Positions 27,190-44,534 are shown, counted from the stretch's first letter. The stretch is DNA of 64,000 nt from an uncultured Acidobacteriota bacterium (GCA_963809485.1 CAWEJX010000008.1:256001-320000), one strand, 5' to 3'. Notes: generated by a model not told the origin, from the letters alone. Numbers and translations: made by a program.

Positions 27190-28560
27190 TTATGTTAGAA
27201 GACGTATCATTTCCCGGATATCCTCCAGCCGCTCGAGCTGGCCGACCCGTTGTATGATTCCTTCAATCCGCCCGGCCTCCAGGCTCCTGGCGCAATCTCT
27301 GAATTTCCGTGCGCAATCCTCGAAGGACATCGGCCGCTCGAGGCTGCCCAGGGGATTCTCCACCACCTTTGCAAACTCCTTCCCGTCGTTCGTAATTACC
27401 TTCACGCGCGTGGGCTCCGGGCCGGGTTTGTGAAGCGTGTTGTCCACCTCCACGCGCATCTTTTGAGTAACCTCCAGCACTTCCCGATTCCTGATGGCGT
27501 TTTCCGTAAAGTCATCCAGGCCGACGCGCCTGCCGACGATGGCCGAGGCCACTCCCCAGGGAATGCTGAACTGCGCGTCTACGGGGCTTCTCGGCGTCCG
27601 CTTGGATTCCAGAGGCTGGCAAAGCAGCGAAAGATGCGCGTCGGTGACCGAAAGCACGATCTCCTTTATGTCTTTGCTCCGGATATTCTGCTCGGTTGCC
27701 AGAGCCAAAGCGGCGTCAATGGCCGGATGGATGCCCCGGCAGCACGGATAGGGCTTGATCGCGACGTTGACACCCTCGAAACGTTTGCCAAGCTCGGCCG
27801 TAAGTATTTCCCGACTGTAATCCCCGTGCATGTATTGCCTATAGAAACCCCACTCGCCTTCCAGGCTGTTTTGGGCGCCCGTGACACCGGCCTTAGCCAA
27901 GAGCGCGGCCGTGATGCCTCCCTTTACGGCGAATCCGGGTCCAAGCCTCTTGGTTAACGCGCCATCCTTGACACACTGGCCGTTGCCCCCGCACTGGTGA
28001 TAACCGATGCCGATGGCATCGACCGTCTTCTCTTCGCCTAAGCCCATGATCCTGGCAGCCGTCGCGGCAGAACCCATAAAGCCGAACAAGGATGTCAGGT
28101 GCCATCCCAGCTCGACCGGGCTCCTGCCCGGGGTAGTTGCCAAAGCCAGCCGGCACATCATATCGACGCCCAGCGCCGTGCTGGTAATGAATTCCCTGCC
28201 GCTCAAGTTTCCCTGCGCTTCCGCCACAGCCATAGCGACAGGTATGGATGCTATTCCCGGATGCATGACAGCCGCTTCGTGGACATCATCAAAGTCCAGG
28301 GCATGAGCCATCGTGGCGTTGGCCTGCGCGGCATTGGGCGCGGGCACCTTCTGCCGGCTGCCGATGAGACTGCTCTCTTCCTTGCCGCCCCAGTCCTTTA
28401 CGAGTTGGCATACATGCGTCGCGCCCGGCTGAGAGGCGCCGCCCAGTGCAACTCCCAATAAATCCAGGATCTCCTTTTTTGTAGCCTCCACCACTTCCGA
28501 CGTAAGATCCTCGAACTTCGTGTTTGCGAAGTTCCTGGCGAATAAAAAGGCAGCGTCCAT
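27190..28560 (-). CDS. MmgE/PrpD family protein
   Basis: AHALDFDDVH...HPG, GWHLT, KPYPCCRGIH, AQFSIPW. Confidence 0.93.
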   Translation of the reverse strand: MDAAFLFARNFANTKFEDLTSEVVEATKKEILDLLGVALGGASQPGATHVCQLVKDWGGKEESSLIGSRQKVPAPNAAQANATMAHALDFDDVHEAAVMHPGIASIPVAMAVAEAQGNLSGREFITSTALGVDMMCRLALATTPGRSPVELGWHLTSLFGFMGSAATAARIMGLGEEKTVDAIGIGYHQCGGNGQCVKDGALTKRLGPGFAVKGGITAALLAKAGVTGAQNSLEGEWGFYRQYMHGDYSREILTAELGKRFEGVNVAIKPYPCCRGIHPAIDAALALATEQNIRSKDIKEIVLSVTDAHLSLLCQPLESKRTPRSPVDAQFSIPWGVASAIVGRRVGLDDFTENAIRNREVLEVTQKMRVEVDNTLHKPGPEPTRVKVITNDGKEFAKVVENPLGSLERPMSFEDCARKFRDCARSLEAGRIEGIIQRVGQLERLEDIREMIRLLT

Positions 28561-28655: not shown

Positions 28656-29534
28656 CTATTTGTCGAAATCATCCAGCACTTTGAAATAATCGTGTTTTTC
28701 GTGGGCGGCTTCCCGGACCCCTTTGTCCCTTCGCAGTTTGAAAAAGTTGAGTTCGCCTTCGTCGAGCACTTTATTGGTCTGAAAGCTGTGCATGATGTAG
28801 TGCTCCACCAGGCCCCGGTCGATTCCCATGGTGTGATAAATCAATTCCCGGGTAGCTTTGCCCAATGCAATACCGTCTTTGGGATGGAGGCAGAGCCCAT
28901 GAGCCAGGTTCCGGACTTCCTCATCGAGTTTGTCGGCCGGCACGGCTTTGTTGATCAGATTGTATTGCGCCGCCTTGATGCCGTTGAATCTGCGTCCGGT
29001 GAGGCAAAGCTCCATCGCTCGCGTCAGGCCGCACCGCAGGATCATCATGGGCGTAAGCGTCATGCCGCCCTGGCCCAGACGTTCCTCGACATGCCCCATC
29101 TGGCAGTCTTCGCTGGCGATGATCAGGTCGCAGAAACTCACGAGATTGAATGCGACGCCCAGACAATAGGTGTGCAGCTGCGCGATCGTGATCTTCTTGC
29201 AGTAAAGTATTCTCCTGTGGAAATCCACAAAAAGGTTCCTGTCGAATTCCAGCTTAACCCGCTGCGGAATGCGCTGCTTGCCCTTTTCGCCGGGTTTCGG
29301 CTCCCTCATGCCGTAAACAAATCCCACGCCGGTTAAATCGGCGCCGGCGCTGAAGGCGCGTCCTGCGCCTTTGAAAACGACGACTTTCACGTCATCATCC
29401 CGTTCCGCTTCGTTTAATGCCGCCGTCCAATCCCGGAAAATTTCGGGGCCGATGGCGTTGAGCCGGTCCGGCCGGTTCAGGGTGATAAATGCTACCTGTT
29501 TGTCTTTTTCGTATTTTATAAACTCCAGTTCCAT
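28656..29534 (-). CDS. enoyl-CoA hydratase/isomerase (crotonase) family protein
   Basis: ITLNRPDRLNA, GRAFSAGADL, CDLIIASED. Confidence 0.9.
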   Translation of the reverse strand: MELEFIKYEKDKQVAFITLNRPDRLNAIGPEIFRDWTAALNEAERDDDVKVVVFKGAGRAFSAGADLTGVGFVYGMREPKPGEKGKQRIPQRVKLEFDRNLFVDFHRRILYCKKITIAQLHTYCLGVAFNLVSFCDLIIASEDCQMGHVEERLGQGGMTLTPMMILRCGLTRAMELCLTGRRFNGIKAAQYNLINKAVPADKLDEEVRNLAHGLCLHPKDGIALGKATRELIYHTMGIDRGLVEHYIMHSFQTNKVLDEGELNFFKLRRDKGVREAAHEKHDYFKVLDDFDK

Positions 29535-30865: not shown

Positions 30866-32962
30866 TTATATTTCACGGGCTGTGCGGAGGCCGGTGCCGA
30901 TTGCATCCGCAATCAGCAGGGGATCTTTGCAGTCGCCGATGGCATAGACTTCAGGCACTTTGCGCTTGAGGCTTTCGAGCAGATCGTTGTTTGGCGTCAG
31001 AGGCAAAGCCGTCACGATGCTGTCGGCCTCGATCGTCTGTCTCTTGCCGTCACCCGCAATAATGGTCAAGCCTCTATCGGTGACTTCCACGTACTCCTTG
31101 ACTCCGCTTATCAAAGTCACTCCCTTTTTCCTGAACCAGATTAGGAGATAGGCCTGAAGTGCATCCACCATGCCATCGCCGATCGTCGGCTTGGTCTCCA
31201 CGACGGTTACTTTTCGGCCCCGTTTGGTGAGAAATTCGGCAAGTTCGGCGCCCTGGATGGCTCCGCCGATTACGACAACCCTTTTCCCGACCGGCATGTA
31301 AAACCGGGTCAGGTCCCGTATGGTCTCGGGTTTAAAAAACTTCAAGTAAAACTTTAACTTTTGATGCAAAGCCACGCCGCTGACTACAATCGGCTTATCG
31401 ATGCCCGGGATTTTCGGGATTGTAGACGTAGCGCCGGTGGCCAGGAAAACCACGTCGGGTTTAAGCCTGTCGACCACGGAGAGATCCGCCTCCTGCCCGA
31501 GCTCGATTTTCACGCCAAGCTTGGCAAGCTGACGTGAAAAATAATTGATGATGAGCGACAGGTCTTCCGGATGGGTTCCCTTCACAATCGACGCTATGGG
31601 AAGCAATCCCCCGAGCGCGCTTGACTTTTCGTGAAGCGTTACATCGTGGCCCCTCAGAGCGGAGACCCTGGCTGCCGACATCCCTGCGGGCCCGCCGCCG
31701 ATCACGAGGACTTTTTTCCTTTTCTCCGCTTTTTCAATGGTGTTATAGGGGGTGCCCAACAAGCCGTTTATTCTGCATCTTCGGCTTCCGAGACAGTTGT
31801 CGCAGCCGGTGCACGGCTGGATGTCCTCCAGCCTTCCCTCCGCGATCTTTTTGGGATAATCCGGGTCGGCCAGAAGGCGCCGGGTCATCGCGATGAAATC
31901 AACCTTGCCCTCGCGGAGCAATCCTTCGCCGATGTCGGCATCGAGTTTGGCTACAACCGTAACAGGTATGGATACGGCGCTTTTGATCCCTGCGGCCGCG
32001 TAAATATTCGCGGCCACGCCTTGCTGGCTGGCATTATAGGCCTTTGGAAAAGCTTCGACCGGGATAGGAGGCTCCGGGTAGAAGAGGGCATCCGTGAGAT
32101 AGGCGCCCACGTGATAGCCCAGGAAGTGGCTTCGGACCTGCAGGGCGTCGGCGCCCGCAGCCTGGAGGCATTTGGCGATTTCCCTTGCGTCCTCATGAGT
32201 GAGGCACTGGCTGTCAGGAACGCCGATTCCCTGTCCCATCTCGATGCCGTTTATGATCATGGAAACGGGGAAGTCCCTCCCCAGGCGCTTTTTGATCTCC
32301 CGAATTACTTCCATCGCGAAGCGGGCCCGGTTTTCGATGCTGCCGCCATACGCATCGGTGCGCTTGTTCCAGAAGGGAGAGAAGAAGTTGTGCAGAAGGT
32401 GGCTGCTGGCTGCGTTGATGTCCACGCCGTCGAATCCCGCTTTCTGAGCCCGGACTGCTGCGCTGGCGAACTTGTCCACAATCTCCTGGATCTGCTCCAC
32501 AGTGAGCGCCCGGGGCACTTCGGCGTGAAAATCCCCATCGGACTGGAAGCTGACGGGCGACGCTCCTATGGGCGGCCCGTCGTACATCGGCTGCGGCGCG
32601 AAGGGGAGCTTGACCTGCCAGGGGCCGTCGTGATTCATCTGCATGAAAGTCGGGCAGTCATGTTTGTGAATGATTTTGACCAGTTCGCTGAGGCCCTGGA
32701 TGTATTTGTCATCGTCGATGCGGTACCTTTCTTTCCAGCGCACGCCCAGCGGGTAATCGATGGTGGGCGATTCAACAATCAACAGCCCCACACCGCCTCT
32801 GGCGATGCCTTCGTAAAATGCCAGGACTTCTTCCTGCATGTGCAGGTCGTCCTCGTGCCACATGAGCATGCCGGCGCCTGATTTGACGATTCGGTTTCTG
32901 GTTTTTACCGACCCTATGCGGCCGGGTTCGAGGAGCTTTTGGTATTTCGAAAAAGTACTCAT
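30866..32962 (-). CDS. NADH:flavin oxidoreductase (OYE barrel + 4Fe-4S + FAD; 2,4-dienoyl-CoA/enoate reductase-like)
   Basis: AGFDGVDINAASSHLL, NKRTDAYGGSIENRARF, CTGCDNC...C, VIGGGPAG. Confidence 0.9.
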   Translation of the reverse strand: MSTFSKYQKLLEPGRIGSVKTRNRIVKSGAGMLMWHEDDLHMQEEVLAFYEGIARGGVGLLIVESPTIDYPLGVRWKERYRIDDDKYIQGLSELVKIIHKHDCPTFMQMNHDGPWQVKLPFAPQPMYDGPPIGASPVSFQSDGDFHAEVPRALTVEQIQEIVDKFASAAVRAQKAGFDGVDINAASSHLLHNFFSPFWNKRTDAYGGSIENRARFAMEVIREIKKRLGRDFPVSMIINGIEMGQGIGVPDSQCLTHEDAREIAKCLQAAGADALQVRSHFLGYHVGAYLTDALFYPEPPIPVEAFPKAYNASQQGVAANIYAAAGIKSAVSIPVTVVAKLDADIGEGLLREGKVDFIAMTRRLLADPDYPKKIAEGRLEDIQPCTGCDNCLGSRRCRINGLLGTPYNTIEKAEKRKKVLVIGGGPAGMSAARVSALRGHDVTLHEKSSALGGLLPIASIVKGTHPEDLSLIINYFSRQLAKLGVKIELGQEADLSVVDRLKPDVVFLATGATSTIPKIPGIDKPIVVSGVALHQKLKFYLKFFKPETIRDLTRFYMPVGKRVVVIGGAIQGAELAEFLTKRGRKVTVVETKPTIGDGMVDALQAYLLIWFRKKGVTLISGVKEYVEVTDRGLTIIAGDGKRQTIEADSIVTALPLTPNNDLLESLKRKVPEVYAIGDCKDPLLIADAIGTGLRTAREI

Positions 32963-32981
32963 TCGTTTCACCTTTTTGAGA

Positions 32982-33058: not shown

Positions 33059-34303
33059 CTAGATAACTCCAGATTCTCTCATGAATGCGATTTGGTTCTC
33101 TGTCAATCCCAGTTCGCGGTAGACTTCGGCATTATGCTCGCCGACCATGGGCGCACGGCATTTGACGGACGTCTCATTTTCCGAAGATCGCGCGAACTGC
33201 TTTGGATACGGGATCGTCGATTGTAGTTCCGGATGCTCCATTTGCGTCCAGAAACCTCTGGCGGCGAGGTTGGGGTCGCCGAGCAGGTCCTTCATACCCA
33301 TAAGCGGGCAAATCGAGATGCCTCTCGTCGTCGCCGCTTCGAGCGCTTCAGTTTTTGTGCGTGTCATGAAAAACTCTGCGATAGGCTGCGATATCCTGTC
33401 TATCAATTCCTGCGTTGCGGTGGCCATGTCGAAACTTTCCCATTCGTAGGACAGAAGGAATTCGTTGGCCATGCCCTTTTCATTCATCCATTGCACCAGC
33501 TGGCGGCAGGTCTTGGCTCCCTGCTGCCCGCCGATCATGAAGAAAAATATGAAGCCGTCTTTGCACGGCCAAACCTGCCGCTGCAGGGTCCCCCGGCTGC
33601 TGGTGCGAAAGGTCCCCACCCGGCCGAGAATCAGTTTCTCGAGCTCCCAGTGCGGTATCGTTTGAGCCAGGAACCAGGCAGCGCTGTGCTGCATGGAAAC
33701 GTCCACATGCTGCCCATCCCCCGTCTTTCTCCTGAAATGATGTGCGAGCATGGAACCTACGGCAGCGTCCGCTCCGGCGTGAAGGCATGCCTGCGGCATG
33801 CTTATGTTCACTGGCCGTCGGTCCGAATCGCCGGTCAGAAAAAGCTCTCCGGCCATCCCCATGAGGACAAGGTCGGAAGCCTGATAGTGACGGTACGGCC
33901 CTGTCTGGCCAAAGGGCGTAATCGACGTCAGGATGATATCCTTCCGGATACGGCACAACTCGGGGTAGCCGAAGCCAAGCCTGTCCATCTCGCCCGGCGC
34001 AAAAGATTCAATGACAAAGTCCGCGGTTTTAGCCAGGTCGCGGAAAATGCGCCTGCCTTCCTCTGTCCCCAGATTGAGCGTGATTGCGCGCTTGCTGCTG
34101 TTATAGGCAAACCAGTAAAGGCTTTTTTCGGGATCCGTCTGATCGTGCCAGAAAGGACCGATTTTGCGTGAGGGATCTCCTCCGGGCCTCTCAACCTTTA
34201 TGACATCCACGCCCAGTTCGGCCAGGATCTTCCCGCACAGAAATCCTTTTTCGTCGGTCAGATCCAGGGCTCGATACCCTTCCAGCATTCTGGTCCGCGG
34301 CAT
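33059..34303 (-). CDS. class III CoA-transferase (CaiB/BaiF; BbsE-like)
   Basis: LDLTDEKGFLCGKILAELGVDVIKVERPGGD, SITPFGQTGPY. Confidence 0.9.
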   Translation of the reverse strand: MPRTRMLEGYRALDLTDEKGFLCGKILAELGVDVIKVERPGGDPSRKIGPFWHDQTDPEKSLYWFAYNSSKRAITLNLGTEEGRRIFRDLAKTADFVIESFAPGEMDRLGFGYPELCRIRKDIILTSITPFGQTGPYRHYQASDLVLMGMAGELFLTGDSDRRPVNISMPQACLHAGADAAVGSMLAHHFRRKTGDGQHVDVSMQHSAAWFLAQTIPHWELEKLILGRVGTFRTSSRGTLQRQVWPCKDGFIFFFMIGGQQGAKTCRQLVQWMNEKGMANEFLLSYEWESFDMATATQELIDRISQPIAEFFMTRTKTEALEAATTRGISICPLMGMKDLLGDPNLAARGFWTQMEHPELQSTIPYPKQFARSSENETSVKCRAPMVGEHNAEVYRELGLTENQIAFMRESGVI

Positions 34304-34307
34304 AATT

Positions 34308-34730
34308 TTATGCTTTCCCCCTGGCTTTCAGATCGGACCAGAGATCCGCAATGGCTGCCTTCACATCCGACGCGGGCGGGTATACACGGTCAAATCCCAG
34401 CTTCTTGAACTTTATCTCGTCGTCCTTGAAGTCGTGCTTCCCCACACCCAGGTTCCCGCCGATATAGAGAAGCACATCGTTCAGTCCGGCCTTGAGGCAG
34501 TTTTCCTTGAATCCCTGGACATCATTCTCGCCCATCCCATAAAGAGAACTCATCAGGATGGCATCCGCCTTGTTTTCCAGAGCGGCTTTGATGAACTCCT
34601 CCGGAGGCGTCAGGATTCCCAGCTCTATAACGTTGAACCCGCCTTCTCGGAGCGCCCGCGACAATATCTTTGTACCGATCACGTGGGCGTCCTTGCCCAC
34701 CGTCCCCGTCACTACAGTTGGATTAGCCAT
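34308..34730 (-). CDS. mamA: glutamate/methylaspartate mutase sigma (B12-binding) subunit
   Basis: DAHVIG (DxHxxG), SSLYG, YIGGNL, GFDRVYPP. Confidence 0.88.
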   Translation of the reverse strand: MANPTVVTGTVGKDAHVIGTKILSRALREGGFNVIELGILTPPEEFIKAALENKADAILMSSLYGMGENDVQGFKENCLKAGLNDVLLYIGGNLGVGKHDFKDDEIKFKKLGFDRVYPPASDVKAAIADLWSDLKARGKA

Positions 34731-34773
34731 AATTGCGTTTCTCCTTACACCGCGATTGACGATCTTTCAGAAG

Positions 34774-34843
34774 GAGTTTCCAGTTCCCAGGTAAAAGGCT
34801 TCAGTCTTAAAACTGGCAACTGGAAACTTGGAACTGGGAACTC
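34774..34843. repeat. heptamer inverted-repeat element E
   Basis: gagtttc cagttcc caggt / aactggc aactgga aacttgg aactggg aactc. Confidence 0.85.
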
Positions 34844-34845
34844 TT

Positions 34846-36309
34846 TTACGGTTTGCCGGTCAGCTGGCCTTTGCTGAAGGCCCAGAAATCCTGAACCAGG
34901 GCGTCATAATCCATCTGCCGGCCTTCCGCCTTTTCCCTTTCCGCTACTTTGGCGCGATGGAATTTCTTGACCTCTTCGGGGAATGGCAGATTGCCAAACT
35001 CCTTCCAACGTATGGCGCCGCGAACGTCCTTAATGCCCTGCACCAGGTCTTTCACTTGCCTGTTGGGGCTGAAACTTGAATCGAGGAATCCCTCTTCCAC
35101 CGATATCAGGCATCCAAGGACGACATCTCCGTCGCCCACTTCCAGGATTTTATTCATGAGCGCACGGATTTCGAGTTCGGCCATTGCCGCTTCTTCATCG
35201 ATTTCCTTCATTTTCAGGTCGATCTTCTGCCCGCGTATGACGTTCAGGAGCCAGTTGGTCGATTCGTAGCTTTGCGCGTGGGATTCTTCCGTGGGGATGC
35301 CCAGGGCTTCATCGATAGTTCTTATGGATACGGCCTCGACATTCCCGAGGGCGGCAACCATGGCTGTGTAATTGGGAAAAGCGAAGGCGGCTCCTACTCC
35401 CTGAGGCATGGGGAACAGCGGTGTATGCTGTGCGAAAACGCCTGCTATTTCCACGTCTTTGTAGCCAAATCTGTCCAGATACTCCCTCATCAGCCGGGGA
35501 GTCACCCGGATCCAGGCCAGGTCCTGCGCGAGATTGCCCATCAGATGAACGACGGAGGTTATGCTCTTGCCCCCCTGTTCGGCCACCATGAGCGCGTCTA
35601 CGATGGTGGTAGCCAGATTCACGGTCATCGGCTGCATGCCCGTAAGGATCCACCCATGATTGTCCGTGGAAATAATCACTCCCCGGTCGGCATAATAGCC
35701 GATCAGCCGCTGGACATACTGGCTTGCGGCCATGGATTGCTCCAGGGTTGCATACTTCTCGTAGGCTGCCCATGAGATAAAGGAAGATGCGGCGATTGCC
35801 GTCATGCCCGCAGCGAAAGCAATTTCGGTTGCCAGGGGATAGGATTTAAGGGAAAGCCTGGGATTAAAGGCTCCGCGATCGACGCTCTCGATGATTCTGC
35901 GCGTCTGCTTCACTCCGTAGTTGATGATCGGATATCCGTTCAGCAGGTTTTTGCCCGTCCTCCTCATCTCTGCCAGGAGGCTTTCCACTTTTTCGAAATC
36001 GAGCTGGCGCGTATAGCTGTCCGAGGTCACCGGGATGAAAGGCACTCCTGATTCAACCAGCTTTTTGGAGAGACTGATCTCGTCTTCAATCAATCCGGTG
36101 CCCGCCCTGGGAAATATGGCGGTTTTTCCCTCGTCGTGCAGCCTCCGGGCAACCTTATGCCAGTTCTTGGAGTCCGGCAGTTTCTTCTGATACTCGACCG
36201 CCTCAACAAGATCCACCTCACGGCCTGTCGGCCAGAGGGCAAGAACCGGTCCGCGCATTTTTAGAAAATCATTTTCATCAAGCCGCTTGTTTCTCAACTT
36301 GGTTTCCAT
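34846..36309 (-). CDS. glutamate mutase epsilon-like catalytic subunit with altered active site
   Basis: VLALWPTGREVDL, PRAG, DSYTR, LLNGYPIINYG, EALGIPT. Confidence 0.85.
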   Translation of the reverse strand: METKLRNKRLDENDFLKMRGPVLALWPTGREVDLVEAVEYQKKLPDSKNWHKVARRLHDEGKTAIFPRAGTGLIEDEISLSKKLVESGVPFIPVTSDSYTRQLDFEKVESLLAEMRRTGKNLLNGYPIINYGVKQTRRIIESVDRGAFNPRLSLKSYPLATEIAFAAGMTAIAASSFISWAAYEKYATLEQSMAASQYVQRLIGYYADRGVIISTDNHGWILTGMQPMTVNLATTIVDALMVAEQGGKSITSVVHLMGNLAQDLAWIRVTPRLMREYLDRFGYKDVEIAGVFAQHTPLFPMPQGVGAAFAFPNYTAMVAALGNVEAVSIRTIDEALGIPTEESHAQSYESTNWLLNVIRGQKIDLKMKEIDEEAAMAELEIRALMNKILEVGDGDVVLGCLISVEEGFLDSSFSPNRQVKDLVQGIKDVRGAIRWKEFGNLPFPEEVKKFHRAKVAEREKAEGRQMDYDALVQDFWAFSKGQLTGKP

Positions 36310-36317
36310 CTATTCCC

Positions 36318-36400
36318 CCAGTTCCCAGTTCCCAGTTCCCAGTTTCCGGTTTCCCTGTTTTGATTTCAACTCGAAACTCGAAACTGGGAACTTGGAACTA
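36318..36400. repeat. heptamer inverted-repeat element F
   Basis: ccagttc x3 ccagttt ccggttt / aactcga aactcga aactggg aacttgg aacta. Confidence 0.9.
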
Positions 36401-36401
36401 T

Positions 36402-37628
36402 TTAGATCACTTCCTCATCCTTGAGCTGTTGTATCTTGTCCCAGTCGTAGCCGCAGACATCCATCAGGACTTCTTCCGTATTCTGACCGAAACAGGGCGC
36501 AAAGCCGTCCACCGTCACCGGAGTTCCGCTGAAATTGACCGGATTTCCAACCATCTTGATGGCGCCCAGGGACGGATGATTGATTTCCGCGATGTAGCCA
36601 TTCTGCAGCGCCTGTTCGTCATTGGCCAGATCCGTCGGTCTCAGGACAGGGGAATAGGCGATTCCTTCGCCCTTCTCATCCAGAATTTTCATCCATTCCT
36701 GGCGTGTTTTGGTCTTGAAAACCCCTTCTATGATAACCAGCAGTTCCCTGAAATTTTCGCGCCGTCGGGCGGCATCGGAATATTTGTCATCCTTCTCGAG
36801 GTGCTGAATGCCCAGGGCATCGCAGAAAGCCGGCCAGAACCTGTCGGCCTGCGGCTCCGAAAGCAGCAGCCACTCCCCGTCGGCGCACTCGAAATGGTTT
36901 GCCATCGGGTTTTTCAGGGATCGCCTCGAGGGTCTGGGAATCTGGCGGCCTCTGAGGAGCGCCGTATTGAGGTTATAGGCCTGCAAATGTATCCCCGATC
37001 CAAGAAGCGAAACTTCTACCTGCTGGCCTGTTCCCTGTCTGTCCCTCGCGACCAGTGCGGCCAGTATTCCATAAACCAGAAGGGTGCCGGTCATCTGGTC
37101 GAACACGGGTCCGCCAATCTGCGCGGGAGGCGTGTCCGGCTCTCCACCGAGCGCATACATGATCCCCGATCGCGCCTGTGCCACGCTGTCAAAAGCGCGC
37201 CGGTTGCTTTCCGGCCCAGCAAGTCCATAGCCGGTCGCAAGCCCATAAACAAGCTTTGGATTGTATTTCTTCAGGGTCTCGAAGTCGATCTTAAGTTTTG
37301 CAATCGCCGACTGCGTGAAGTTGGTGCAGAAAACATCGGCTTTGGATACCAGCTCATAAAGCAGCTGCCTGCCTTTTTCTTTCTTCAGGTCCAGCGTGAT
37401 GCTCTTTTTATTGCGGTTTGCGGTTTCGAACAGTATGTTTTCGCCATTGGGCAGCGTCATGGAGGAACCAAAAACCGCGGACGTGCCCCGCGATGGATCG
37501 CCCTTCTCGCGGTCCTCTATCTTAATGATTTCGGCTCCCAAATCGCCCAGCATGTAGCATGCCGTGGGCGCGCTGAGATAGCCCCCACATTCGACGACCC
37601 GTATGCCCTGCAATGGTCCACCACTCAT
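36402..37628 (-). CDS. class III CoA-transferase (CaiB/BaiF)
   Basis: GPLQGIRVVE, LGDLGAEIIKIE, NRNKKSITLDL, AFDSVAQARSG. Confidence 0.92.
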   Translation of the reverse strand: MSGGPLQGIRVVECGGYLSAPTACYMLGDLGAEIIKIEDREKGDPSRGTSAVFGSSMTLPNGENILFETANRNKKSITLDLKKEKGRQLLYELVSKADVFCTNFTQSAIAKLKIDFETLKKYNPKLVYGLATGYGLAGPESNRRAFDSVAQARSGIMYALGGEPDTPPAQIGGPVFDQMTGTLLVYGILAALVARDRQGTGQQVEVSLLGSGIHLQAYNLNTALLRGRQIPRPSRRSLKNPMANHFECADGEWLLLSEPQADRFWPAFCDALGIQHLEKDDKYSDAARRRENFRELLVIIEGVFKTKTRQEWMKILDEKGEGIAYSPVLRPTDLANDEQALQNGYIAEINHPSLGAIKMVGNPVNFSGTPVTVDGFAPCFGQNTEEVLMDVCGYDWDKIQQLKDEEVI

Positions 37629-37645
37629 ATCATCTCCCATCTCAA

Positions 37646-37762
37646 AATTACGAATTACGAATTACGAATGACGAATTTAAACAATCTACTTGGCTATCTA
37701 TCATAAAATGCAAACTGCAGATGTTGATTCAATTCGTCATTCGTAATTCGTAATTCGCAATT
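37646..37762. repeat. heptamer inverted-repeat element G (AATTACG class)
   Basis: aattacg x3 aatgacg aatt / aattcgtcattcgtaattcgtaattcgcaatt; 31/32 positions complementary. Confidence 0.92.
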
Positions 37763-39461
37763 ACGTTGTGAGCCAGCGGAGCATCTGAAGCTCCTCCGGA
37801 CTCGGTCTCGGCACTTCTTCGACGACGGGTGCAGTCTTCAGATCCCACCCGCAGTTATTTTTTATTTCTTTGATCCGTTCTTCCAGTTTTCGAGCCTGCG
37901 GATCCGGGAAGCATGCCACCAGATACAGCTCGTCCTCCGGGTCCGGTTTCCTGAAGATGCCCATAGTCGAAACCACCGTTGTTACGGCATGCCCGCGGCC
38001 GGTCACGTATGCAAGCTGGTCCACGAACCGATCCCTGGACTGATCCAGGCATAGGATGGCCTCGCGGGCGTTGAGCGCATCGTTGACTCCTCCCGAGCCG
38101 ACGAGGAATTTCCCCTTGGAGGTTTTTGTGGAATTGATGTTCCCGAACCGGTCCATCTGGCCTGCGCCGAGGATGCTCAGACAGCGGCTGTTCTCGCCCC
38201 CGACAAAAACACCCTGCATCATGACAGTATCCGTCAGGATTTTTGAACTGCGGACCCCGGCTTCGCTGGCCAGGATGGATTCCCCGGGAACGGGCGTATA
38301 GCCGATCTGACCGTTTCCGGTTCCCAATTCAAATCCCGCCGACTTCAGCTGATAATAGGCCAGAAATGCGGCCGTCGCGGCTGCGCCCGCTCCGGCGAGC
38401 ACCATTTTGTGCCCTTTGCTGTCCACGCTGTTGCGGATTTCCCGGGCCAACGCAATAAGCATCATCTCCTTGGGCTGGAATTCCGTGTCCTGTTGAGGCG
38501 ACGGGACAAACTCGAATCCCGTTGTCACCCGCCGGGACTTCTCTTTAAGCTCGTCGATTCGCTGCTTTCCAAGCTTGCTCAAATAGTGTTCGTGATCCAG
38601 ACAATCAAGGATCCATTCCCTGATCCAATCATCCAGTGCGGGGCCGCTTGCGGAAGCTTCATAGAGAGCATTGAGAAAATCTACATCCTTTTCGTAGGGA
38701 TCGATATCGCTGATGCCTGGATTGGCCAGGGAGAAAGGATGAAGTCCCAGAGGCGCAGGCGCCACAGCCTGAACGGCATAGGCAGGGATTTTGACCAGCG
38801 CCGCATATTTTTTTATGAATTCTGCAGGCACGATCTTCTCAACCGTTACGACCACTCCCCCTTTGCTGGCAAGGGAGCCCCAAACGTCTTCGCCGTAGGG
38901 AGCAGGCAGAATCGTGTTGCCATCGAGGTCCGCAGCACAGCCGTGGACAATGGAGATATCGGGCAGAAGAGCGCTCGCCAGGCCGACTTGGACTCCGGAT
39001 CCAAACGGATCGTCCATTGTCGTAAACGCTGTCGCGTTATCCTCGGCAATGCTGCTACCGAGAACGGATCGGGTGGGCATGAACGGAACGCCGAAAGCAC
39101 CCGCCATAAGCCGCTGCTGGAGAGAGTTCAGCGACCAGTTTTCCATCTCGATCTGGCCGCTTTCGTAAGCGTTCTGAATAACCTTACTCGGGCGTCCGGT
39201 GCCGGAAATATTGGCACACACCGAACAGATGAGCTTCTTCACCAGTCTGCAGTGAACCAGATTGAGCGCATGTCCCGTTACGGTGCTTTGGATCAGCGTG
39301 AATTCGGGATTTTTTCCATGATATTGCCGGATTATGTCGCAAATGGCGGCGCTGGCTCCCCCGATGCCCGAGGCGATATGCAGCTTCATCCCGGGCTTCA
39401 CGAAGCGTTTTACAGCTTCGCGCAACTCCAGCAGTTTCCCCTGTTCCTTAAGCGCAGTCAT
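37761..39461 (-). CDS. family I CoA-transferase, fused alpha+beta (glutaconate CoA-transferase-like)
   Basis: RLMAGAFGVPFMPTRSVLGS, AADLDGN, LGAGQMDRFGNINST, LVGSGGVND. Confidence 0.82.
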   Translation of the reverse strand: MTALKEQGKLLELREAVKRFVKPGMKLHIASGIGGASAAICDIIRQYHGKNPEFTLIQSTVTGHALNLVHCRLVKKLICSVCANISGTGRPSKVIQNAYESGQIEMENWSLNSLQQRLMAGAFGVPFMPTRSVLGSSIAEDNATAFTTMDDPFGSGVQVGLASALLPDISIVHGCAADLDGNTILPAPYGEDVWGSLASKGGVVVTVEKIVPAEFIKKYAALVKIPAYAVQAVAPAPLGLHPFSLANPGISDIDPYEKDVDFLNALYEASASGPALDDWIREWILDCLDHEHYLSKLGKQRIDELKEKSRRVTTGFEFVPSPQQDTEFQPKEMMLIALAREIRNSVDSKGHKMVLAGAGAAATAAFLAYYQLKSAGFELGTGNGQIGYTPVPGESILASEAGVRSSKILTDTVMMQGVFVGGENSRCLSILGAGQMDRFGNINSTKTSKGKFLVGSGGVNDALNAREAILCLDQSRDRFVDQLAYVTGRGHAVTTVVSTMGIFRKPDPEDELYLVACFPDPQARKLEERIKEIKNNCGWDLKTAPVVEEVPRPSPEELQMLRWLTT

Positions 39462-39696: not shown

Positions 39697-41178
39697 CTAA
39701 CCGAGCTTGCCTTGCCAGGGGCTGGCCGGTGTTCCGACCAGGTCGATCCAAACGTTCTTCATCATGCTGTATTCATCGAGGACCATGATGGAATTTTCCT
39801 TGCTGTGCCCCGACTCTTTGCATCCGCCCCAGGGGCATTCAAAAACAATGGACAGGTGCTGGTTCAGCCACACGGTGCCCACTTTGAGCTGCTTGGTCAT
39901 GACCAGGCCCAGCCGTATATCCTTGGTCCAGATCGATGCGCACAAACCGAAACGGGAGTCGTTGGCGATAGCCACAGCCTCTTCAGGAGTCCTGAATTTT
40001 GCCAGGGCAACCACCGGGCCGAAGACTTCCTCCTGCATGATCTCCGATTTGGGATCGCAGTCGCCAAAAATCGTGGGGGGAACGAAATATCCATCTTTCG
40101 TTTCCGGCGTATTGGGACGTTCACCGCCCAGCAGCAGTTTTGCGCCGGATCTCCTGGCACGCTCAACGAAGCGCTCGATGTTGTCCCTGTGGCCTTTGTA
40201 AGCGACAGGCCCGATCATAGTCTCAGGATTCAGAGGATCCCCCACACGCAGCAGCTTCGCGGCAGCAACAAATTTTTCGGCGAATTCGTCGTACACCGAC
40301 TCGTGAACAAGGTACCGGCTCGAGGCGCCGCAGTTCTGGCCGGAATTAAAGAAACCGCCCCAGATGGCCCCTTCGACGGTGGCCTTCATATCCGCGTCGG
40401 GAAGCACGATGAATGGATTTTTGCCCCCCAGCTCGCAAGCGACCGGTTTCACTGCAGCGCTGGCCAGAGCCAGGATCCGTTTCCCGGTTTCCGAATCGCC
40501 GGTAAAATTGATTTTGGCAATATAGGGGTGTTTGACCATGGCTTCTCCAACGGTAGATCCGGGACCAGACACGATATTAAGCACGCCCGGCGGGAATCCG
40601 GCCTTGGCGGCAAGCTCGCCAAGCTTCAGAACCGTAAGGGGAGCGCAGGAAGCAGGCTTCACCACGGCGGTGTTCCCCATCATCAACGCCGGGGTAATTT
40701 TGGATATTGCCGTAACAAGAGGGAAATTCCATGGCGTGATCAAACCCACAACCCCCAAAGGCTGGCGGATAGTAAAGGACATCGCCTGCGGGCCGACGGG
40801 CAGCGTTTTACCTGTTACCGCCCTTGCGACGCCGGCCATGAATTCGAAATGCTGCGCATCAAAGGTCATATCGAAATTGGTTGTTTTGAAAATTGGCCCG
40901 CCGTATTGCATGGTTTCCAATTTGGCCCACTCGTCCCGTTGAGCCCGGAGCAGCTCTGCCATCTTGAAGAAAATGGCAGCCTTATCGGTCGGGGATGTTT
41001 CCGCCCAGGCAGGCGCAGCCTTCCAGGCCGCCTCAGCCGCCCGGTCGACCTCTACCGAACTGCATTTGGGAGCGAGGCCTACGACCTTGCCATTTGCAGG
41101 ATTGATCACTTCCATCGTTTCCTTGGTAGATGCTTCGCAAAGCTCCCCATTGATTAACACCCGGTAATCTGAATTCAT
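39697..41178 (-). CDS. aldehyde dehydrogenase
   Basis: ITPWNFP, VKPAS, FTGDSETG, ELGGKNP, GQNC, EEVFGPV. Confidence 0.95.
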   Translation of the reverse strand: MNSDYRVLINGELCEASTKETMEVINPANGKVVGLAPKCSSVEVDRAAEAAWKAAPAWAETSPTDKAAIFFKMAELLRAQRDEWAKLETMQYGGPIFKTTNFDMTFDAQHFEFMAGVARAVTGKTLPVGPQAMSFTIRQPLGVVGLITPWNFPLVTAISKITPALMMGNTAVVKPASCAPLTVLKLGELAAKAGFPPGVLNIVSGPGSTVGEAMVKHPYIAKINFTGDSETGKRILALASAAVKPVACELGGKNPFIVLPDADMKATVEGAIWGGFFNSGQNCGASSRYLVHESVYDEFAEKFVAAAKLLRVGDPLNPETMIGPVAYKGHRDNIERFVERARRSGAKLLLGGERPNTPETKDGYFVPPTIFGDCDPKSEIMQEEVFGPVVALAKFRTPEEAVAIANDSRFGLCASIWTKDIRLGLVMTKQLKVGTVWLNQHLSIVFECPWGGCKESGHSKENSIMVLDEYSMMKNVWIDLVGTPASPWQGKLG

Positions 41179-41195
41179 GACCGCCCCCATATCTT

Positions 41196-41726: not shown

Positions 41727-42488
41727 TTAATCGGCGACGATGCCTCCATCCACGGGCAGCGCGGCGCCCGTAATGTAAGAGGCTTCATCCGAGCACAGGA
41801 ACATGGCTGCGGCGGCTACCTCTTCAGGTTCGCCTATCCTTCCCATGGGAACTTTCTGGTCCATTGCCTTGACCATTTCCGGATTCGCGGCTACCAGGCT
41901 TTCATTCATGCCCGTCCGGATGGGGCCCGGGCAGACACAGTTAACCCGAATGCCTTTTCGCGCAAACTCCAGCGCGGTCGATTTCGTGATTCCCACAACT
42001 CCGTGCTTGCTGGCCGGATAGGCCGGATTGCTCGGCGCTCCAACCAGTCCCGCGGCCGAAGACGTGTTCACAATGGCGCCTTTCCCTAGCTTGAGCATTT
42101 GCGGGATCTCATATTTCATGCACAGCCATACGCTCTTGAGATTCACATTGATCATCTCTTCCCAGTCCGCGGCTGTGAAATCGGCCATGGAAGCAAATAC
42201 CTTATGAATCCCGGCATTGTTGAAAGCGCAGTCAAGCTTCCCGTAAGTTTCGACCGTTTTCTCTACTAAAGCTTTAACATCTGCCTCCGAAGATACGTCC
42301 GTTTTTACAAAAAATGCGTCGCCACCGGCATCCTTGATCCGGCGTAGAGTTTCTTCTCCCCGCTTGACATCGACGTCGGCGATTGCCACCTTTGCTCCTC
42401 TTTGAGCAAAGCCTATTGCGGCCGCTCTGCCGATGCCATAAGCCCCCCCAGTCACGATCACAACCTTGTTTCGATACTCGTTTGGCAT
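41727..42488 (-). CDS. SDR family oxidoreductase
   Basis: TGGAYGIG, LDCAFNNAG, YPASKHG, LPVDGG. Start MPNEY after GGAG. Confidence 0.93.
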   Translation of the reverse strand: MPNEYRNKVVIVTGGAYGIGRAAAIGFAQRGAKVAIADVDVKRGEETLRRIKDAGGDAFFVKTDVSSEADVKALVEKTVETYGKLDCAFNNAGIHKVFASMADFTAADWEEMINVNLKSVWLCMKYEIPQMLKLGKGAIVNTSSAAGLVGAPSNPAYPASKHGVVGITKSTALEFARKGIRVNCVCPGPIRTGMNESLVAANPEMVKAMDQKVPMGRIGEPEEVAAAAMFLCSDEASYITGAALPVDGGIVAD

Positions 42489-42515
42489 TTCTCTATCTCC
42501 TCTTTTCGGGGTCTC

Positions 42516-42588
42516 TATTTCCGGTTCCCGCTCCTCGCCGGCAATCTTGGTTGTCCTCAATGGAAAAGCGGAAACGGGAAACCTGGAA
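42516..42588. repeat. degenerate heptamer inverted-repeat element J
   Basis: tatttccggttcccgctcc / ggaaaagcggaaacgggaaacctggaa. Confidence 0.55.
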
Positions 42589-42639
42589 TGTCTATTCTTA
42601 GGGATGTCTTCAGCATTAGTCAACAACCGAAGAGCCCGT

Positions 42640-44432: not shown

Positions 44433-44534
44433 TCTCTCTCCCCGCGACTCGATCGCGGTTTTCTTAGCCTGAAGACATGTCAACCCGAAAGCCTGATTCC
44501 ACAGTCTATAGGATTCATAAATTGCCGATACAAA

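Follow-up and report, generated by a model that had tools for sequence, protein, structure and literature searches.

A GlmES-like gene pair, predicted to encode a cobalamin-dependent mutase lacking the amine-binding glutamate, in a CoA-transferase-rich operon of an uncultured Acidobacteriota bacterium

Genes of the locus

The window analysed in this work is a stretch of 64,000 nucleotides from the genome of an uncultured Acidobacteriota bacterium (6.04 Mb, 95.67% complete, 7.32% contamination). Two intact minus-strand ORFs, encoding a protein of 487 amino acids resembling the glutamate mutase subunit GlmE (P0001) and a GlmS-like protein of 140 amino acids (P0002), occupy positions 34308 to 36309. 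They lie within an operon that is rich in dicarboxylate-type CoA-transferases and contains no nitrogen-handling enzyme. The features are, by coordinates and strand:

26312..27157, minus: short-chain dehydrogenase 'a' (SDR), last gene of the conserved core
27190..28560, minus: MmgE/PrpD-family protein, 456 aa, nearer to IRG1/cis-aconitate decarboxylase and iminodisuccinate epimerase than to 2-methylcitrate dehydratase
28656..29534, minus: crotonase-family enoyl-CoA hydratase (ECH), 292 aa
29552..30829, minus: family III CoA-transferase 'c' (CoAT3c), matching benzylsuccinate CoA-transferase chain B (9fn0_B, 4.7e-80; next match 9.7e-55)
30866..32971, minus: OYE plus pyridine-nucleotide-disulphide oxidoreductase flavoenzyme, 701 aa, of the FadH/2-naphthoyl-CoA reductase type (6qkg_A, 3.1e-74; 1ps9_A, 3.6e-49)
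33059..34303, minus: family III CoA-transferase 'b' (CoAT3b), matching benzylsuccinate CoA-transferase chain A (9fn0_A, 1.3e-65; next match 2.8e-40)
34308..34730, minus: GlmS-like B12-binding subunit (P0002), with D14-x-H16-x-x-G19 (GKDAHVIG), SxL and GG motifs
34775..34828, no strand: inverted repeat spanning the gap between GlmE and GlmS; several such hairpins, built on a heptamer, lie between operon genes
34846..36309, minus: GlmE-like catalytic (TIM-barrel) subunit of a putative AdoCbl mutase (P0001), arginine claw kept, Glu171 replaced by Ala173
36402..37640, minus: family III CoA-transferase 'a' (CoAT3a), best solved relatives formyl-CoA transferase (4e-53) and SUGCT (1.2e-49)
37761..39461, minus: family I CoA-transferase-like protein (CoAT1), 566 aa, PF01144, resembling a GctA plus GctB fusion
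39697..41190, minus: aldehyde dehydrogenase, upstream accessory gene, found in 11 of 19 acidobacterial loci
41727..42707, minus: short-chain dehydrogenase 'b', whose SDR domain starts near residue 77; the true start is probably later
42640..45554, minus: TRAP transporter (DctM 42640-43947, DctQ 43944-44483, DctP 44535-45554), beside the cluster in some relatives only

P0001 is 35-36% identical to GlmE and is covered end to end by the Pfam model Met_asp_mut_E (PF06368, 418 bits, 1-441 of 441). P0002, whose ATG is preceded by AGGAG, scores above the cut-offs of the methylaspartate mutase S models (NF002612, 191.2 versus 110 bits; TIGR01501, 167.7 versus 135.8 bits) and has the base-off/His-on cobalamin motif DxHxxG in the form D14-A-H16-V-I-G19. 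On TIGR01503, the NCBI equivalog model for glutamate-mutase subunit E, P0001 reaches 358.9 bits, below the cut-off of 390.1, and four further members of its superclade (described below) reach 356.7-374.5 bits; the canonical-signature protein P0137 scores 772.9 bits on the same model and P0217 scores 455.3. JGI annotation names relatives as methylaspartate mutase epsilon subunit, public annotation gives these proteins the name 'methylaspartate mutase' or 'hypothetical', and the ESM Atlas matches of the mutase were only 'methylaspartate mutase subunit E' clusters.

In the metatranscriptome X20, whose library may hold DNA, a single 253-nt contig with 3 differences was found on positions 35835-36087, together with four short partial pieces. 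Two DNA runs (X1 and X2) contained joints skipping positions 34726-36319, the sides of which were only 27 letters long and which probably come from other organisms.

CoAT3b and CoAT3c each have a different subunit of benzylsuccinate CoA-transferase as nearest relative and, by similarity only, look like a heteromeric pair of the BbsEF type. CoAT3a, which is 92-94% identical across the acidobacterial loci, is related to SUGCT (succinate--hydroxymethylglutarate CoA-transferase). All three family III proteins gave weak matches to the mesaconate CoA-transferase/2-methylfumaryl-CoA isomerase models, far below the cut-offs (e.g. 189 versus 700 bits). CoAT1 matched both subunits of glutaconate CoA-transferase, 1poi_A on residues 9-306 (1.5e-20) and 1poi_B on residues 424-555 (1.5e-6), with only residues 97-240 of GctB aligning in the beta-like half. 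The PrpD-like protein matched decarboxylase and epimerase members at about 1e-36 to 1e-32 and 2-methylcitrate dehydratase at 1.8e-7. Compared with human cis-aconitate decarboxylase it keeps the equivalents of D93, H103, H159, K207 and K272 but not those of T97, H277 and Y318; having 5 of the 8 residues that we take to make up this site fits a decarboxylase, an epimerase or a dehydratase alike.

A Pfam scan of 18 ORFs between 23 and 47 kb found no aminotransferase or ammonia-lyase. The initial annotation had noted that neither a methylaspartate ammonia-lyase nor a glmL gene lies in the window, and this holds for the entire 6.04-Mb genome, window included, in which searches with MAAL_C (PF07476) and with MutL/GlmL (PF13941) gave no match. 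The genome does encode a PduO-type adenosyltransferase (197 bits), so that a route to adenosylation is available.

Active site of the E-like subunit and its conservation

Residues of P0001 were mapped by HMMER alignment to GlmE of Clostridium cochlearium (1cb7_B; query 4-487 against chain 2-482, E 6.7e-97), in which one single-residue gap lies near the site. An AlphaFold2 model of P0001 (pLDDT 94.2, pTM 0.93) was superimposed on 6h9e_B and 1cb7_B with a TM of 0.96 and an rmsd of 1.6 Å over 486-487 columns, which makes the residue mapping independent of any doubtful alignment. More distant fold matches of the model were lysine aminomutase and methylmalonyl-CoA mutase (TM about 0.5).

Arg66, Arg100 and Arg149 of GlmE, the three-arginine claw that binds the substrate carboxylates, all aligned with arginines of P0001 (R68 in FPRAG, R101 in DSYTR and R151 in NPRL), as had been seen by eye. 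Among His150, Tyr177 and Tyr181, presumably the other pocket residues, only Tyr181 is retained (Tyr183). Of the two GlmE residues presumed to contact the adenosyl-ribose, Glu330 is kept as Glu334 and Lys326 is replaced by Arg330. Glu171 of GlmE, which binds or deprotonates the substrate amino group, corresponds to Ala173. Moreover, His150 is replaced by Leu152, Tyr177 by Ser179, Asn178 by Trp180 and Asn170 by Ile172, and R213-E214-P215-F216 has become T215-D216-N217-H218, from which an Asp-x-His pair (D216, H218) arises at the end of barrel strand 6. The motif changes quoted in the initial annotation (RHG to RLS, Glu171 to Ala, REPFG to TDNHG) are all present as written in the HMMER alignment, and the superposition on the glutamate mutase crystal structure, which it had named as a check, likewise supports Ala at position 171, Glu171 not being retained. 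With these substitutions the pocket is predicted to be unable to hold the amino group of glutamate.

In the close clade (120 proteins, 81-100% identity), no difference occurs at any of the 16 signature positions, Ala at 171 and the equivalent of Glu330 being present in 120/120. As only 42% of all positions are invariant in this clade, the substitutions are not due to chance. The wider superclade is monophyletic (20 leaves, SH-like support 1.0, stem of 0.55 versus a median branch of 0.145) and spreads over at least eight phyla. R100, R149, Y181 and E330 (GlmE numbering, also below) occur in 82/82 of its sequences, and the arginines of the claw are each present in 79-82 of the 82; Asp at 214 is found in 81 and His at 216 in 79 of the 82. 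Position 171 is never conserved (Pro in 30, Ala in 22, Gly in 13, Ser in 11, Glu in 3, Leu in 2 and Asn in 1), and position 326 is Arg in 56/82 and Lys in 26/82. Relatives are encoded in at least 587 genome stretches, the 78 best loci ranging from Acidobacteriota to Thorarchaeota. In a deltaproteobacterial MAG, orphan copies (L019, L020) are surrounded by housekeeping genes. Within the family as a whole, the canonical R/R/R/His150/Glu171 set is present in only 28 of 114 full-length representatives of PF06368 at 50% identity, and P0001 is one of many non-canonical branches of this family.

It is highly improbable that the pair is still a glutamate (methylaspartate) mutase binding the amine through another residue, or a decayed inactive copy. 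The identity of 35-36%, the common fold and the JGI name of the relatives would agree with a glutamate mutase, and acidic residues at 214 (Asp216) and 329 (Asp333) might take over from Glu171. However, true GlmE likewise has Asp or Glu at 214, and across the whole family no residue is more frequent at 329 than Asp (38/114), so that neither is a compensating gain; the missing methylaspartase and the score below the curated cut-off also speak against this reading. Cofactor and claw residues that are invariant in 120/120 proteins, and reading frames containing no stops, speak against decay.

We consider it probable, from the sequences and the model, that the gene pair encodes an active AdoCbl-dependent carbon-skeleton mutase of GlmES architecture that does not use glutamate. 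The initial annotation had proposed such a mutase acting on a non-amino dicarboxylate, and the loss of Glu171 and of two more pocket residues, the TIGR01503 score below cut-off, the lack of methylaspartase and GlmL genes and an operon without nitrogen enzymes and rich in dicarboxylate-type CoA-transferases all support that proposal. The term dicarboxylate is used because the three-arginine claw is retained, which is its sole basis, and a tricarboxylate would be compatible with it.

Gene context and candidate substrates

In the acidobacterial loci the core order CoAT1-CoAT3a-GlmE-GlmS-CoAT3b-(OYE)-CoAT3c-ECH-PrpD-SDR is kept, and CoAT1-CoAT3a-GlmE-GlmS-(MutL)-CoAT3-CoAT3 is found again in Thermodesulfobacteriota, Dehalococcoidia and a deltaproteobacterium. 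No other gene neighbours the mutase as widely as that of the PrpD-like protein, which occurs in 38 of the 84 loci, with examples from each of the five taxonomic groups; in Thorarchaeota, Desulfotomaculum and a Bacillota MAG it comes directly after GlmE-GlmS(-MutL). The MutL/GlmL reactivase occurs in 0/19 acidobacterial loci versus 28/65 others, which weighs against the reading proposed here, and family III CoA-transferases neighbour 0/7 actinomycetotal and 0/19 Bacillota members. Such neighbour counts are lower bounds and not independent, as contig ends frequently truncate the loci and a single MAG can contribute several of them. Glycyl-radical enzymes beside some relatives (Bacillota and others) are of the PFL2/eliminase type and not X-succinate synthases, and offered no usable hint of the substrate.

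In the mechanism we propose, the enzyme would bind a free C5-type acid through two carboxylates, and the adenosyl radical would take a hydrogen, interconverting a 2-substituted glutarate and a 2-substituted 3-methylsuccinate by the same 1,2-shift that leads from glutamate to 3-methylaspartate. As both carboxylates would have to be free for the mutase, the CoA-transferases may remove CoA before the rearrangement and restore it afterwards; CoAT3a (SUGCT/formyl-CoA-transferase-like) and the glutaconate-type transferase would serve the glutarate-type acid, and the benzylsuccinate-type pair the succinate-type acid. The FadH-like flavoenzyme, the crotonase and the SDR could then run a benzylsuccinate-like beta-oxidation, and the IRG1-like member of the PrpD family would act alongside the mutase, on the free acid. 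Family III transferases are missing altogether beside the mutases of Actinomycetota and Bacillota, so this removal and return of CoA cannot be general for the superclade. Also against the scheme, the cluster contains no lyase or thiolase to complete either of the proposed routes. Two HpcH-type lyases are encoded elsewhere in the genome, unlinked to the cluster.

The four CoA-transferase genes that flank the mutase might instead simply make its substrate, a CoA thioester as in methylmalonyl-CoA mutase (for example in 2-methylsuccinyl-CoA <-> glutaryl-CoA). Migration of a thioester is chemically easy, as established for enzymes of that type, and in fold the CoA-ester mutases are distant relatives of the GlmE barrel (TM about 0.5). 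We nevertheless regard this as very unlikely: conservation of the claw in 79-82 of the 82 sequences points to a substrate with two carboxylates free, the model nearly coincides with GlmE (TM 0.96) but not with methylmalonyl-CoA mutase, and no CoA-transferase neighbours the actinomycetotal (0/7) and Bacillota (0/19) members.

For a free acid, our leading guess, held with low confidence, is 2-hydroxyglutarate <-> 3-methylmalate, which would make the enzyme the first natural B12 mutase for a 2-hydroxy acid. The Asp-x-His pair could act as base on the 2-hydroxyl, giving a ketyl-type migrating radical, and the PrpD-like protein might be a hydro-lyase standing in for the methylaspartate ammonia-lyase of glutamate fermentation. 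In favour of this guess, 3-methylmalate is the part of 2-methylcitrate that is dehydrated in PrpD-type reactions, and clostridial glutamate mutase slowly turns over 2-hydroxyglutarate. Against it, the PrpD-like protein is closer to decarboxylases and epimerases than to 2-methylcitrate dehydratase, and the new pocket residues (Ala, Ile/Val, Leu, Phe, Trp) are more hydrophobic, so that the pocket would suit an alkyl or methylene substituent as well as a hydroxyl, or better.

The hydrophobic pocket (A173, I172, L152, F177, W180) brings in a GlmES-type mutase for 2-methyleneglutarate <-> 3-methylitaconate, or for another 2-alkylidene or 2-alkyl C5 diacid, in which the migrating sp2 or hydrophobic carbon would need no polar partner at position 171. 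Itaconate, a known product of the family of the IRG1-like neighbour, is itself a 2-methylene diacid; an ene-reductase-type flavoenzyme lies in the operon, and fumarate-reductase-like flavoproteins lie in 12 of 84 loci. Furthermore, the Dehalococcoidaceae cluster L014 contains a gene of the hydroxyisobutyrate-dehydrogenase family, to which 2-(hydroxymethyl)glutarate dehydrogenase presumably belongs. This substrate is nonetheless unlikely, as the near-invariant Asp-x-His would have no obvious role on a hydrocarbon substituent and as Pfam scans of the window found no enamidase, methylitaconate isomerase or dimethylmalate lyase, which we take to be genes of nicotinate fermentation.

The prevalence of the PrpD-like gene as the most general neighbour (38/84), in a family whose characterised substrates presumably carry at least three carboxylates, would also suit a tricarboxylate mutase, for example for homocitrate <-> 2-methylcitrate or butane-1,2,4-tricarboxylate <-> methyltricarballylate. 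Loss of Glu171 would take away a negative charge and open space for a carboxymethyl group, His218 and Arg330 would further raise the positive charge of the pocket, and benzylsuccinate-type transferases take 2-substituted succinates, which such tricarboxylates are. Still, the pocket has gained mostly non-polar residues, Arg at 326 is found in only part of the superclade, and the cluster has no gene of the citrate-synthase, aconitase or homoaconitase type, which together make this reading decidedly unlikely.

To our knowledge only a handful of AdoCbl carbon-skeleton mutase reactions have been described, and we know of only one established substrate for the glutamate-mutase family. A full-text literature search returned no paper on a GlmE-like mutase with such a pocket or gene context, and papers that mention 2-methyleneglutarate mutase do not say to which sequence family it belongs; against the literature searched the mutase is new. 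The branch to which it belongs is large, well conserved and spread widely over the phylogeny, and its proteins go under the names 'methylaspartate mutase' or 'hypothetical'. Finding the substrate would extend the known B12 reactions and bring to light an anaerobic pathway, so far undescribed, through which small organic acids pass in soils, peat and sediments. It would also put right a systematic misannotation because of which glutamate fermentation is predicted too often. With the canonical site in only about a quarter of its representatives, PF06368 is a mostly uncharted set of radical enzymes. Should a 2-hydroxy-acid mutase and a PrpD hydro-lyase indeed act together, they would form an ammonia-free 'methylmalate' route from 2-oxoglutarate/2-hydroxyglutarate via mesaconate to CoA esters, a route that uncultured anaerobes from at least eight phyla would use in soils, wetlands and sediments.

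Comparison with known systems

The closest known system is glutamate mutase (GlmES/MutES, EC 5.4.99.1) of C. cochlearium (1CB7, 1CCW, 1I9C, 6H9E), with which the pair shares the two-subunit layout, the fold of the E subunit, the DxHxxG motif of the S subunit, residues Arg66, Arg100, Arg149, Tyr181 and Glu330, and presumably the AdoCbl radical 1,2-shift. It differs in the changes Glu171 to Ala, His150 to Leu, Tyr177 to Ser, Asn178 to Trp, REPF to TDNH and Lys326 to Arg, and in lying not with methylaspartase and GlmL but among CoA-transferases, a crotonase, an SDR and a PrpD-like gene. By reaction, the nearest functional precedent is 2-methyleneglutarate mutase (Mgm, EC 5.4.99.4) of Eubacterium barkeri; no other AdoCbl mutase is known to act on a free C5 dicarboxylate that lacks an amino group. 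None of the partner genes of nicotinate fermentation turned up in the window.

The genes around the mutase resemble the BbsEF/G/H/CD module of the anaerobic toluene pathway (9FN0). CoAT3b and CoAT3c each match a different transferase subunit, and a crotonase and an SDR come after this pair, like BbsH and BbsCD. Here, however, a FadH/NCR-like flavoenzyme takes the place of the acyl-CoA dehydrogenase, the cluster has no BbsAB-type thiolase and no glycyl-radical synthase, and a B12 mutase is present that is absent from the toluene pathway. The C5 chemistry of the methylaspartate pathway or cycle and of the 3-hydroxypropionate bi-cycle uses a mesaconate CoA-transferase, a mesaconyl-CoA hydratase and an intramolecular mesaconyl-CoA transferase. 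The cluster differs from it in having no methylaspartase and no lyase, and a crotonase rather than a MaoC-type hydratase; a mutase for a branched C5 diacid followed by family III CoA-transferases would be common to both. With the class I AdoCbl carbon-skeleton mutases (GlmES/MCM type) in general, the pair has in common the cobalamin-binding Rossmann domain and the TIM-barrel substrate domain.

The mutase gene pair and its active site

Both subunits of a glutamate mutase-type enzyme are encoded in the window by intact ORFs:

34846-36309, minus strand: GlmE-like protein P0001, 487 aa
34308-34730, minus strand: GlmS-like protein P0002, 140 aa

P0001 spanned the whole Pfam model of the methylaspartate mutase E chain (PF06368; 418 bits). 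P0002 scored above the cut-offs of two methylaspartate mutase S models (NF002612, 191.2 against 110; TIGR01501, 167.7 against 135.8) and contains the cobalamin-binding motif D14-x-H16-x-x-G19; a Shine-Dalgarno-like AGGAG lies upstream of its gene. The source genome (6.04 Mb, 21 contigs, 95.67% complete, 7.32% contamination) carries a single GlmE-family gene and encodes a PduO-type adenosyltransferase.

Using HMMER, residues 4-487 of P0001 were aligned with residues 2-482 of Clostridium cochlearium GlmE (1cb7_B; E = 6.7e-97), the sole gap being one residue N-terminal of the RHG motif. We take the arginine claw of GlmE to bind the substrate carboxylates and Glu171 to bind the substrate amine. 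The initial annotation, made by eye, had the three arginines kept, Glu171 changed to Ala, RHG to RLS and REPFG to TDNHG. All the strings it quoted (PRAG, DSYTR, NPRL, RLS, AIAASSFISWAAY and TDNHG) were found in P0001, and the HMMER alignment agreed with it at each of these sites. Retained residues (GlmE number, then P0001 number) are Arg66 (R68), Arg100 (R101), Arg149 (R151), Tyr181 (Y183) and Glu330 (E334), and replaced ones are His150 (L152), Asn170 (I172), Glu171 (A173), Tyr177 (S179), Asn178 (W180), Lys326 (R330) and His329 (D333), together with Arg213-Glu214-Pro215-Phe216 (T215-D216-N217-H218). The structural alignment called for at the outset was obtained with an AlphaFold2 model of P0001 (input alignment of 70 sequences; pLDDT 94.2, pTM 0.93), which superposed on 6h9e_B and 1cb7_B with a TM score of 0.96 and an rmsd of 1.6 Å over 486-487 columns. 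In the model the replaced residues lie at or just past the C-terminal ends of strands 147-151, 171-172, 214-217 and 326-329, and it is at the C-terminal ends of its strands that a TIM barrel has its active site. Together these data show that the GlmES-type scaffold is intact: the cofactor motif, the carboxylate claw and Glu330 are all present, and the pocket has been remodelled without the amine partner.

Against TIGR01503, P0001 scored 358.9 bits, under the curated 390.1, and four other members of the wider clade scored 356.7-374.5 bits, whereas the canonical-site proteins P0137 and P0217 reached 772.9 and 455.3 bits. The reported lack of methylaspartate ammonia-lyase and glmL genes in the window extends to the whole source genome (95.67% complete), where neither MAAL_C nor MutL/GlmL gave a match. 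No aminotransferase, ammonia-lyase or amino-acid dehydrogenase was found among the 18 ORFs scanned at 23-47 kb of the window. With the E chain below its cut-off, no methylaspartase match in the genome and both ORFs intact, it is barely credible that the substrate is glutamate after all, or that the pair is an inactive copy.

Conservation and distribution of the clade

In a word-indexed search with P0001, 868 of 8000 scored candidates reached E ≤ 1e-20. The 120 best listed were 81-100% identical to P0001, and its close relatives were all labelled as Acidobacteriota MAGs. When P0001 and 119 close relatives were aligned, 15 of 16 signature positions were identical in all 120 sequences, P0001 position 172 alone varying (Ile 94, Val 26), while only 42% of all positions were invariant. 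Judging from these sequences, the pocket signature is under selection and not accidental.

An exhaustive search of 50%-identity representatives gave 786 proteins at E ≤ 0.001 and 161 at 1e-30. The two best, P0122 (642 aa, an E-S fusion) and P0123 (490 aa), were 49% identical to P0001, and the others at most 39%. The family alignment comprised P0001, every eighth of its 119 close relatives (15 sequences) and, out of 150 listed representatives (P0122-P0271), the 114 of at least 420 aa. Among these 114, the nearest to P0001 of those listed, 32 have Glu at 171 and 28 the full set of three arginines, His150 and Glu171. All three arginines are present in 55, of which 25 lack Glu171, and at least one is missing in 59. 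Since only 28 of the 114 carry the canonical set, PF06368 is functionally heterogeneous and the canonical enzyme a minority within it; the family seems to hide many unrecognised specificities.

In a FastTree phylogeny of 70 sequences (alignment A1), P0001 fell within a clade of 20 leaves (SH-like support 1.0) whose stem measures 0.55 substitutions per site, the median branch of the tree being 0.145. Species-representative genomes scanned with the clade alignment A2 contained at least 587 stretches encoding relatives. The best 80 of these represent 78 loci (46-87% identity) from Acidobacteriota, Thermodesulfobacteriota, deltaproteobacteria, Syntrophorhabdaceae, Burkholderiales, Leptospirales, Dehalococcoidia, Chloroflexia, Actinomycetota, Bacillota, a Bacteroides-labelled MAG and a Thorarchaeota MAG. 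Residues were tallied in P0001 and 81 further sequences (ORFs ≥400 aa) from the superclade, the monophyletic group holding P0001. Arg100, Arg149, Tyr181, Asp at 329 and Glu330 occur in 82/82 sequences, Arg66 in 79 (otherwise one Lys and two gaps), Asp at 214 in 81, His at 216 in 79 and Phe at 175 in 75. Position 171 is Pro in 30, Ala in 22, Gly in 13, Ser in 11, Glu in 3, Leu in 2 and Asn in 1; the amine-binding Glu was thus lost early and generally across the clade. The residue that replaces it is not conserved, and the hallmark of the superclade is a new Asp-x-His pair where strand 6 ends.

Within Acidobacteriota the distribution is patchy, matches at E ≤ 1e-30 occurring in 7 of 301 sampled genomes, source genome included, and P0001's clade only in genomes of the same genus (85% and 49% identity). 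Runs with parts of the window came from soil, wetland and freshwater-sediment metagenomes, and two DNA runs covered all 30 bins of window positions 33059-37640 at ≥85% likeness. One metatranscriptome gave a single short contig on the GlmE-like gene, which is no demonstration of transcription. In two soil/wetland DNA runs, contigs link 34726 to 36319 via 29 other letters. Taken at face value the E gene would be replaced there, but with just 27 letters on the matching side the junction probably belongs to another organism.

Gene context in the window and in relatives

The genes from 45554 down to 26312 are all minus-strand and closely spaced, in the order TRAP transporter DctPQM, short-chain dehydrogenase SDR b, a 23S intervening-sequence-family gene, aldehyde dehydrogenase, the family I CoA-transferase-like CoAT1, family III CoA-transferase a, GlmE-like, GlmS-like, transferase b, an OYE and disulphide-reductase flavoenzyme, transferase c, crotonase, PrpD-family protein and SDR a. 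Further features are:

41264-41548, minus strand: 23S rRNA intervening-sequence-family (PF05635) gene, 94 aa, between SDR b and aldehyde dehydrogenase
28582-28652, 30781-30860, 32980-33069, 34775-34842, 36317-36399, 37646-37762, 39635-39683: gaps with heptamer-based hairpins
45802-46728 (plus), 46990-47490 (minus), 47735-48475 (minus): ORFs upstream of the cluster with fragment-like matches

The PF05635 gene is also present in relative L008. Long inverted repeats occur in nearly every intergenic gap of the operon, with arms of 7-base units such as AGTTCCC, CGTTTCC and AATTACG; in the largest repeat the arms are 39 nt long and 92% complementary. Upstream of the cluster, a 308-aa GltD-like ORF spans only 30-303 of a 566-position model, and a 246-aa ORF has the AFOR_C domain only in part, a 646-aa ORF in L003 matching it at 66%. 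These upstream ORFs (45802-48475) may represent remnants of genes or breaks in the assembly.

Compared with solved structures, CoAT1 resembled glutaconate CoA-transferase as a fusion (GctA 1.5e-20, GctB 1.5e-6), and transferase a was closest to formyl-CoA transferase, then succinate--hydroxymethylglutarate CoA-transferase (SUGCT). Transferases b and c matched benzylsuccinate CoA-transferase chains A (1.3e-65; runner-up 2.8e-40) and B (4.7e-80; runner-up 9.7e-55). The flavoenzyme was closest to 2-naphthoyl-CoA reductase (3.1e-74), then Escherichia coli FadH (3.6e-49); the crotonase had generic relatives only. The PrpD-family protein was closest to Bacillus subtilis IRG1 (3.2e-36), iminodisuccinate epimerase and cis-aconitate decarboxylase, and matched 2-methylcitrate dehydratase at only 1.8e-7. 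Of eight residues presumed to form the cis-aconitate decarboxylase site it keeps D93, H103, H159, K207 and K272, and T97, H277 and Y318 are not kept.

Wherever the contig extends far enough, the first seven acidobacterial loci are syntenic across the core, CoAT1 to SDR a. Neighbours were counted in 84 loci including the window, after removal of L001, L022, the outgroup L009 (35% identity) and six duplicates. ORFs were clustered at E < 1e-15 and ≥60% coverage, clusters were named from their members' Pfam hits, and all ORFs of at least 80 aa were then searched against them. Because contigs often end within a locus and one MAG contributes several loci, these counts are lower bounds and not independent.

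Neighbour families in 84 loci (lower bounds), in the order Acidobacteriota (19 loci), Proteobacteria/Desulfobacterota/Leptospirales (18), Chloroflexota (19), Actinomycetota (7), Bacillota (19), other (2)
Family III transferase: at least 43; 19, 8, 16, 0, 0, 0
PrpD-like (MmgE/PrpD family): at least 38; 15, 4, 7, 7, 4, 1
MutL: at least 28; 0, 4, 9, 0, 14, 1
Glycyl-radical enzyme: at least 9; 0, 1, 0, 0, 7, 1
Others, all groups, at least: SDR 42, crotonase 32, CoAT1 29, aldehyde:ferredoxin oxidoreductase 21, OYE 20

MutL is absent across the acidobacterial clade in this count (0/19 loci). The order CoAT1-transferase a-GlmE-GlmS-(MutL)-transferase-transferase recurs in Thermodesulfobacteriota L043, deltaproteobacterium L038 and Dehalococcoidia L064, L065, L073 and L074; GlmE-GlmS-(MutL)-PrpD occurs on its own in Thorarchaeota L070, Desulfotomaculum L081 and Bacillota MAG L063. 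From these counts and loci, the PrpD-like protein is the partner of widest taxonomic retention, and the CoA module is confined to part of the clade.

Other arrangements were also seen. In L012, L051, L063, L066, L085, L088, L090 and L092 (Bacillota, a Bacteroides-labelled MAG and a deltaproteobacterial MAG) the mutase lies directly 3' of a PFL2/eliminase-type glycyl-radical enzyme and its activase, so that one operon encodes both a B12-dependent and a glycyl radical enzyme; the mutase is an E-S fusion of ~640 aa in L012, L085, L090 and L092, and split into E and S in L063. L021, a Syntrophorhabdaceae MAG, has three clade GlmE-like genes on one stretch (617-1994, 9977-11449 and 12282-13739; 67-70% identical to P0001), one of them split into two ORFs, alongside two GlmS, PrpD-like, crotonase, SDR and AOR genes. 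L019 and L020, from one deltaproteobacterial MAG, carry clade GlmE-like genes (66-67% identical) with no GlmS nearby, among housekeeping genes (tRNA synthetases, MoeA, a Crp-type regulator). Actinomycetota L072, L075, L082 and L083 have a PrpD-like gene upstream, SDR and aldehyde:ferredoxin oxidoreductase genes, then the mutase and a branched-chain-amino-acid-type ABC transporter, with no CoA-transferase and no separate GlmS in the stretch.

Candidate substrates and relation to known mutases

Within their reach, sequence, predicted structure and gene context support the proposal of the initial annotation, an AdoCbl-dependent carbon-skeleton mutase for a non-amino dicarboxylate. The enzyme would catalyse the same AdoCbl-initiated 1,2-shift as glutamate mutase on a free acid gripped by two carboxylates, with a C2 substituent other than ammonium, interconverting a glutarate-type and a 3-methylsuccinate-type acid. 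Because the operon has transferases of both 'glutarate type' (putatively the Gct-like CoAT1 and transferase a, with its SUGCT relative) and 'substituted-succinate type' (putatively the BbsEF-like pair b and c), CoA may be taken off ahead of the mutase and put back on afterwards. These same transferases could be read as pointing to a CoA ester as the mutase substrate, which is very unlikely; the carboxylate claw is kept, and some loci hold no CoA-transferase. Once CoA was restored to the free acid, the FadH-like enzyme, crotonase and SDR could carry out a benzylsuccinate-like beta-oxidation. Our weakest inference concerns the acid's origin: the upstream SDR b, aldehyde dehydrogenase and TRAP transporter, with the aldehyde:ferredoxin oxidoreductases of relatives, suggest oxidation of an imported hydroxy- or aldehyde-acid.

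As substrate pair we rank 2-hydroxyglutarate/3-methylmalate first, at low confidence, because the widest-retained partner is a PrpD-family enzyme and because clostridial glutamate mutase slowly turns over 2-hydroxyglutarate. The part of 2-methylcitrate that PrpD-type enzymes dehydrate is exactly 3-methylmalate, so the PrpD-like protein could stand in for methylaspartase, eliminating water where that enzyme eliminates ammonia, and the hydroxyl could lose its proton to the conserved Asp-x-His pair. Against this pair count the largely hydrophobic new pocket and the closer relationship of the PrpD-like protein to decarboxylase and epimerase members. Such a pocket might suit 2-methyleneglutarate/3-methylitaconate or other alkyl-substituted C5 acids, an unlikely choice that leaves the Asp-x-His pair without the hydroxyl proposed for it. 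A tricarboxylate such as homocitrate/2-methylcitrate is a little less likely still.

We found no description of the clade or its gene context in the literature, where subscription papers were thinly covered and absence is not proven. The enzyme is widely distributed and misannotated. To our knowledge, 2-methyleneglutarate mutase is the only other known B12 mutase for a free non-amino C5 diacid. P0001/P0002 and glutamate mutase are presumably alike in working mode and differ in four testable defining features, namely Glu171, His150/Tyr177, the curated score and the partnership with methylaspartase and GlmL, and the pair should not be filed under EC 5.4.99.1.
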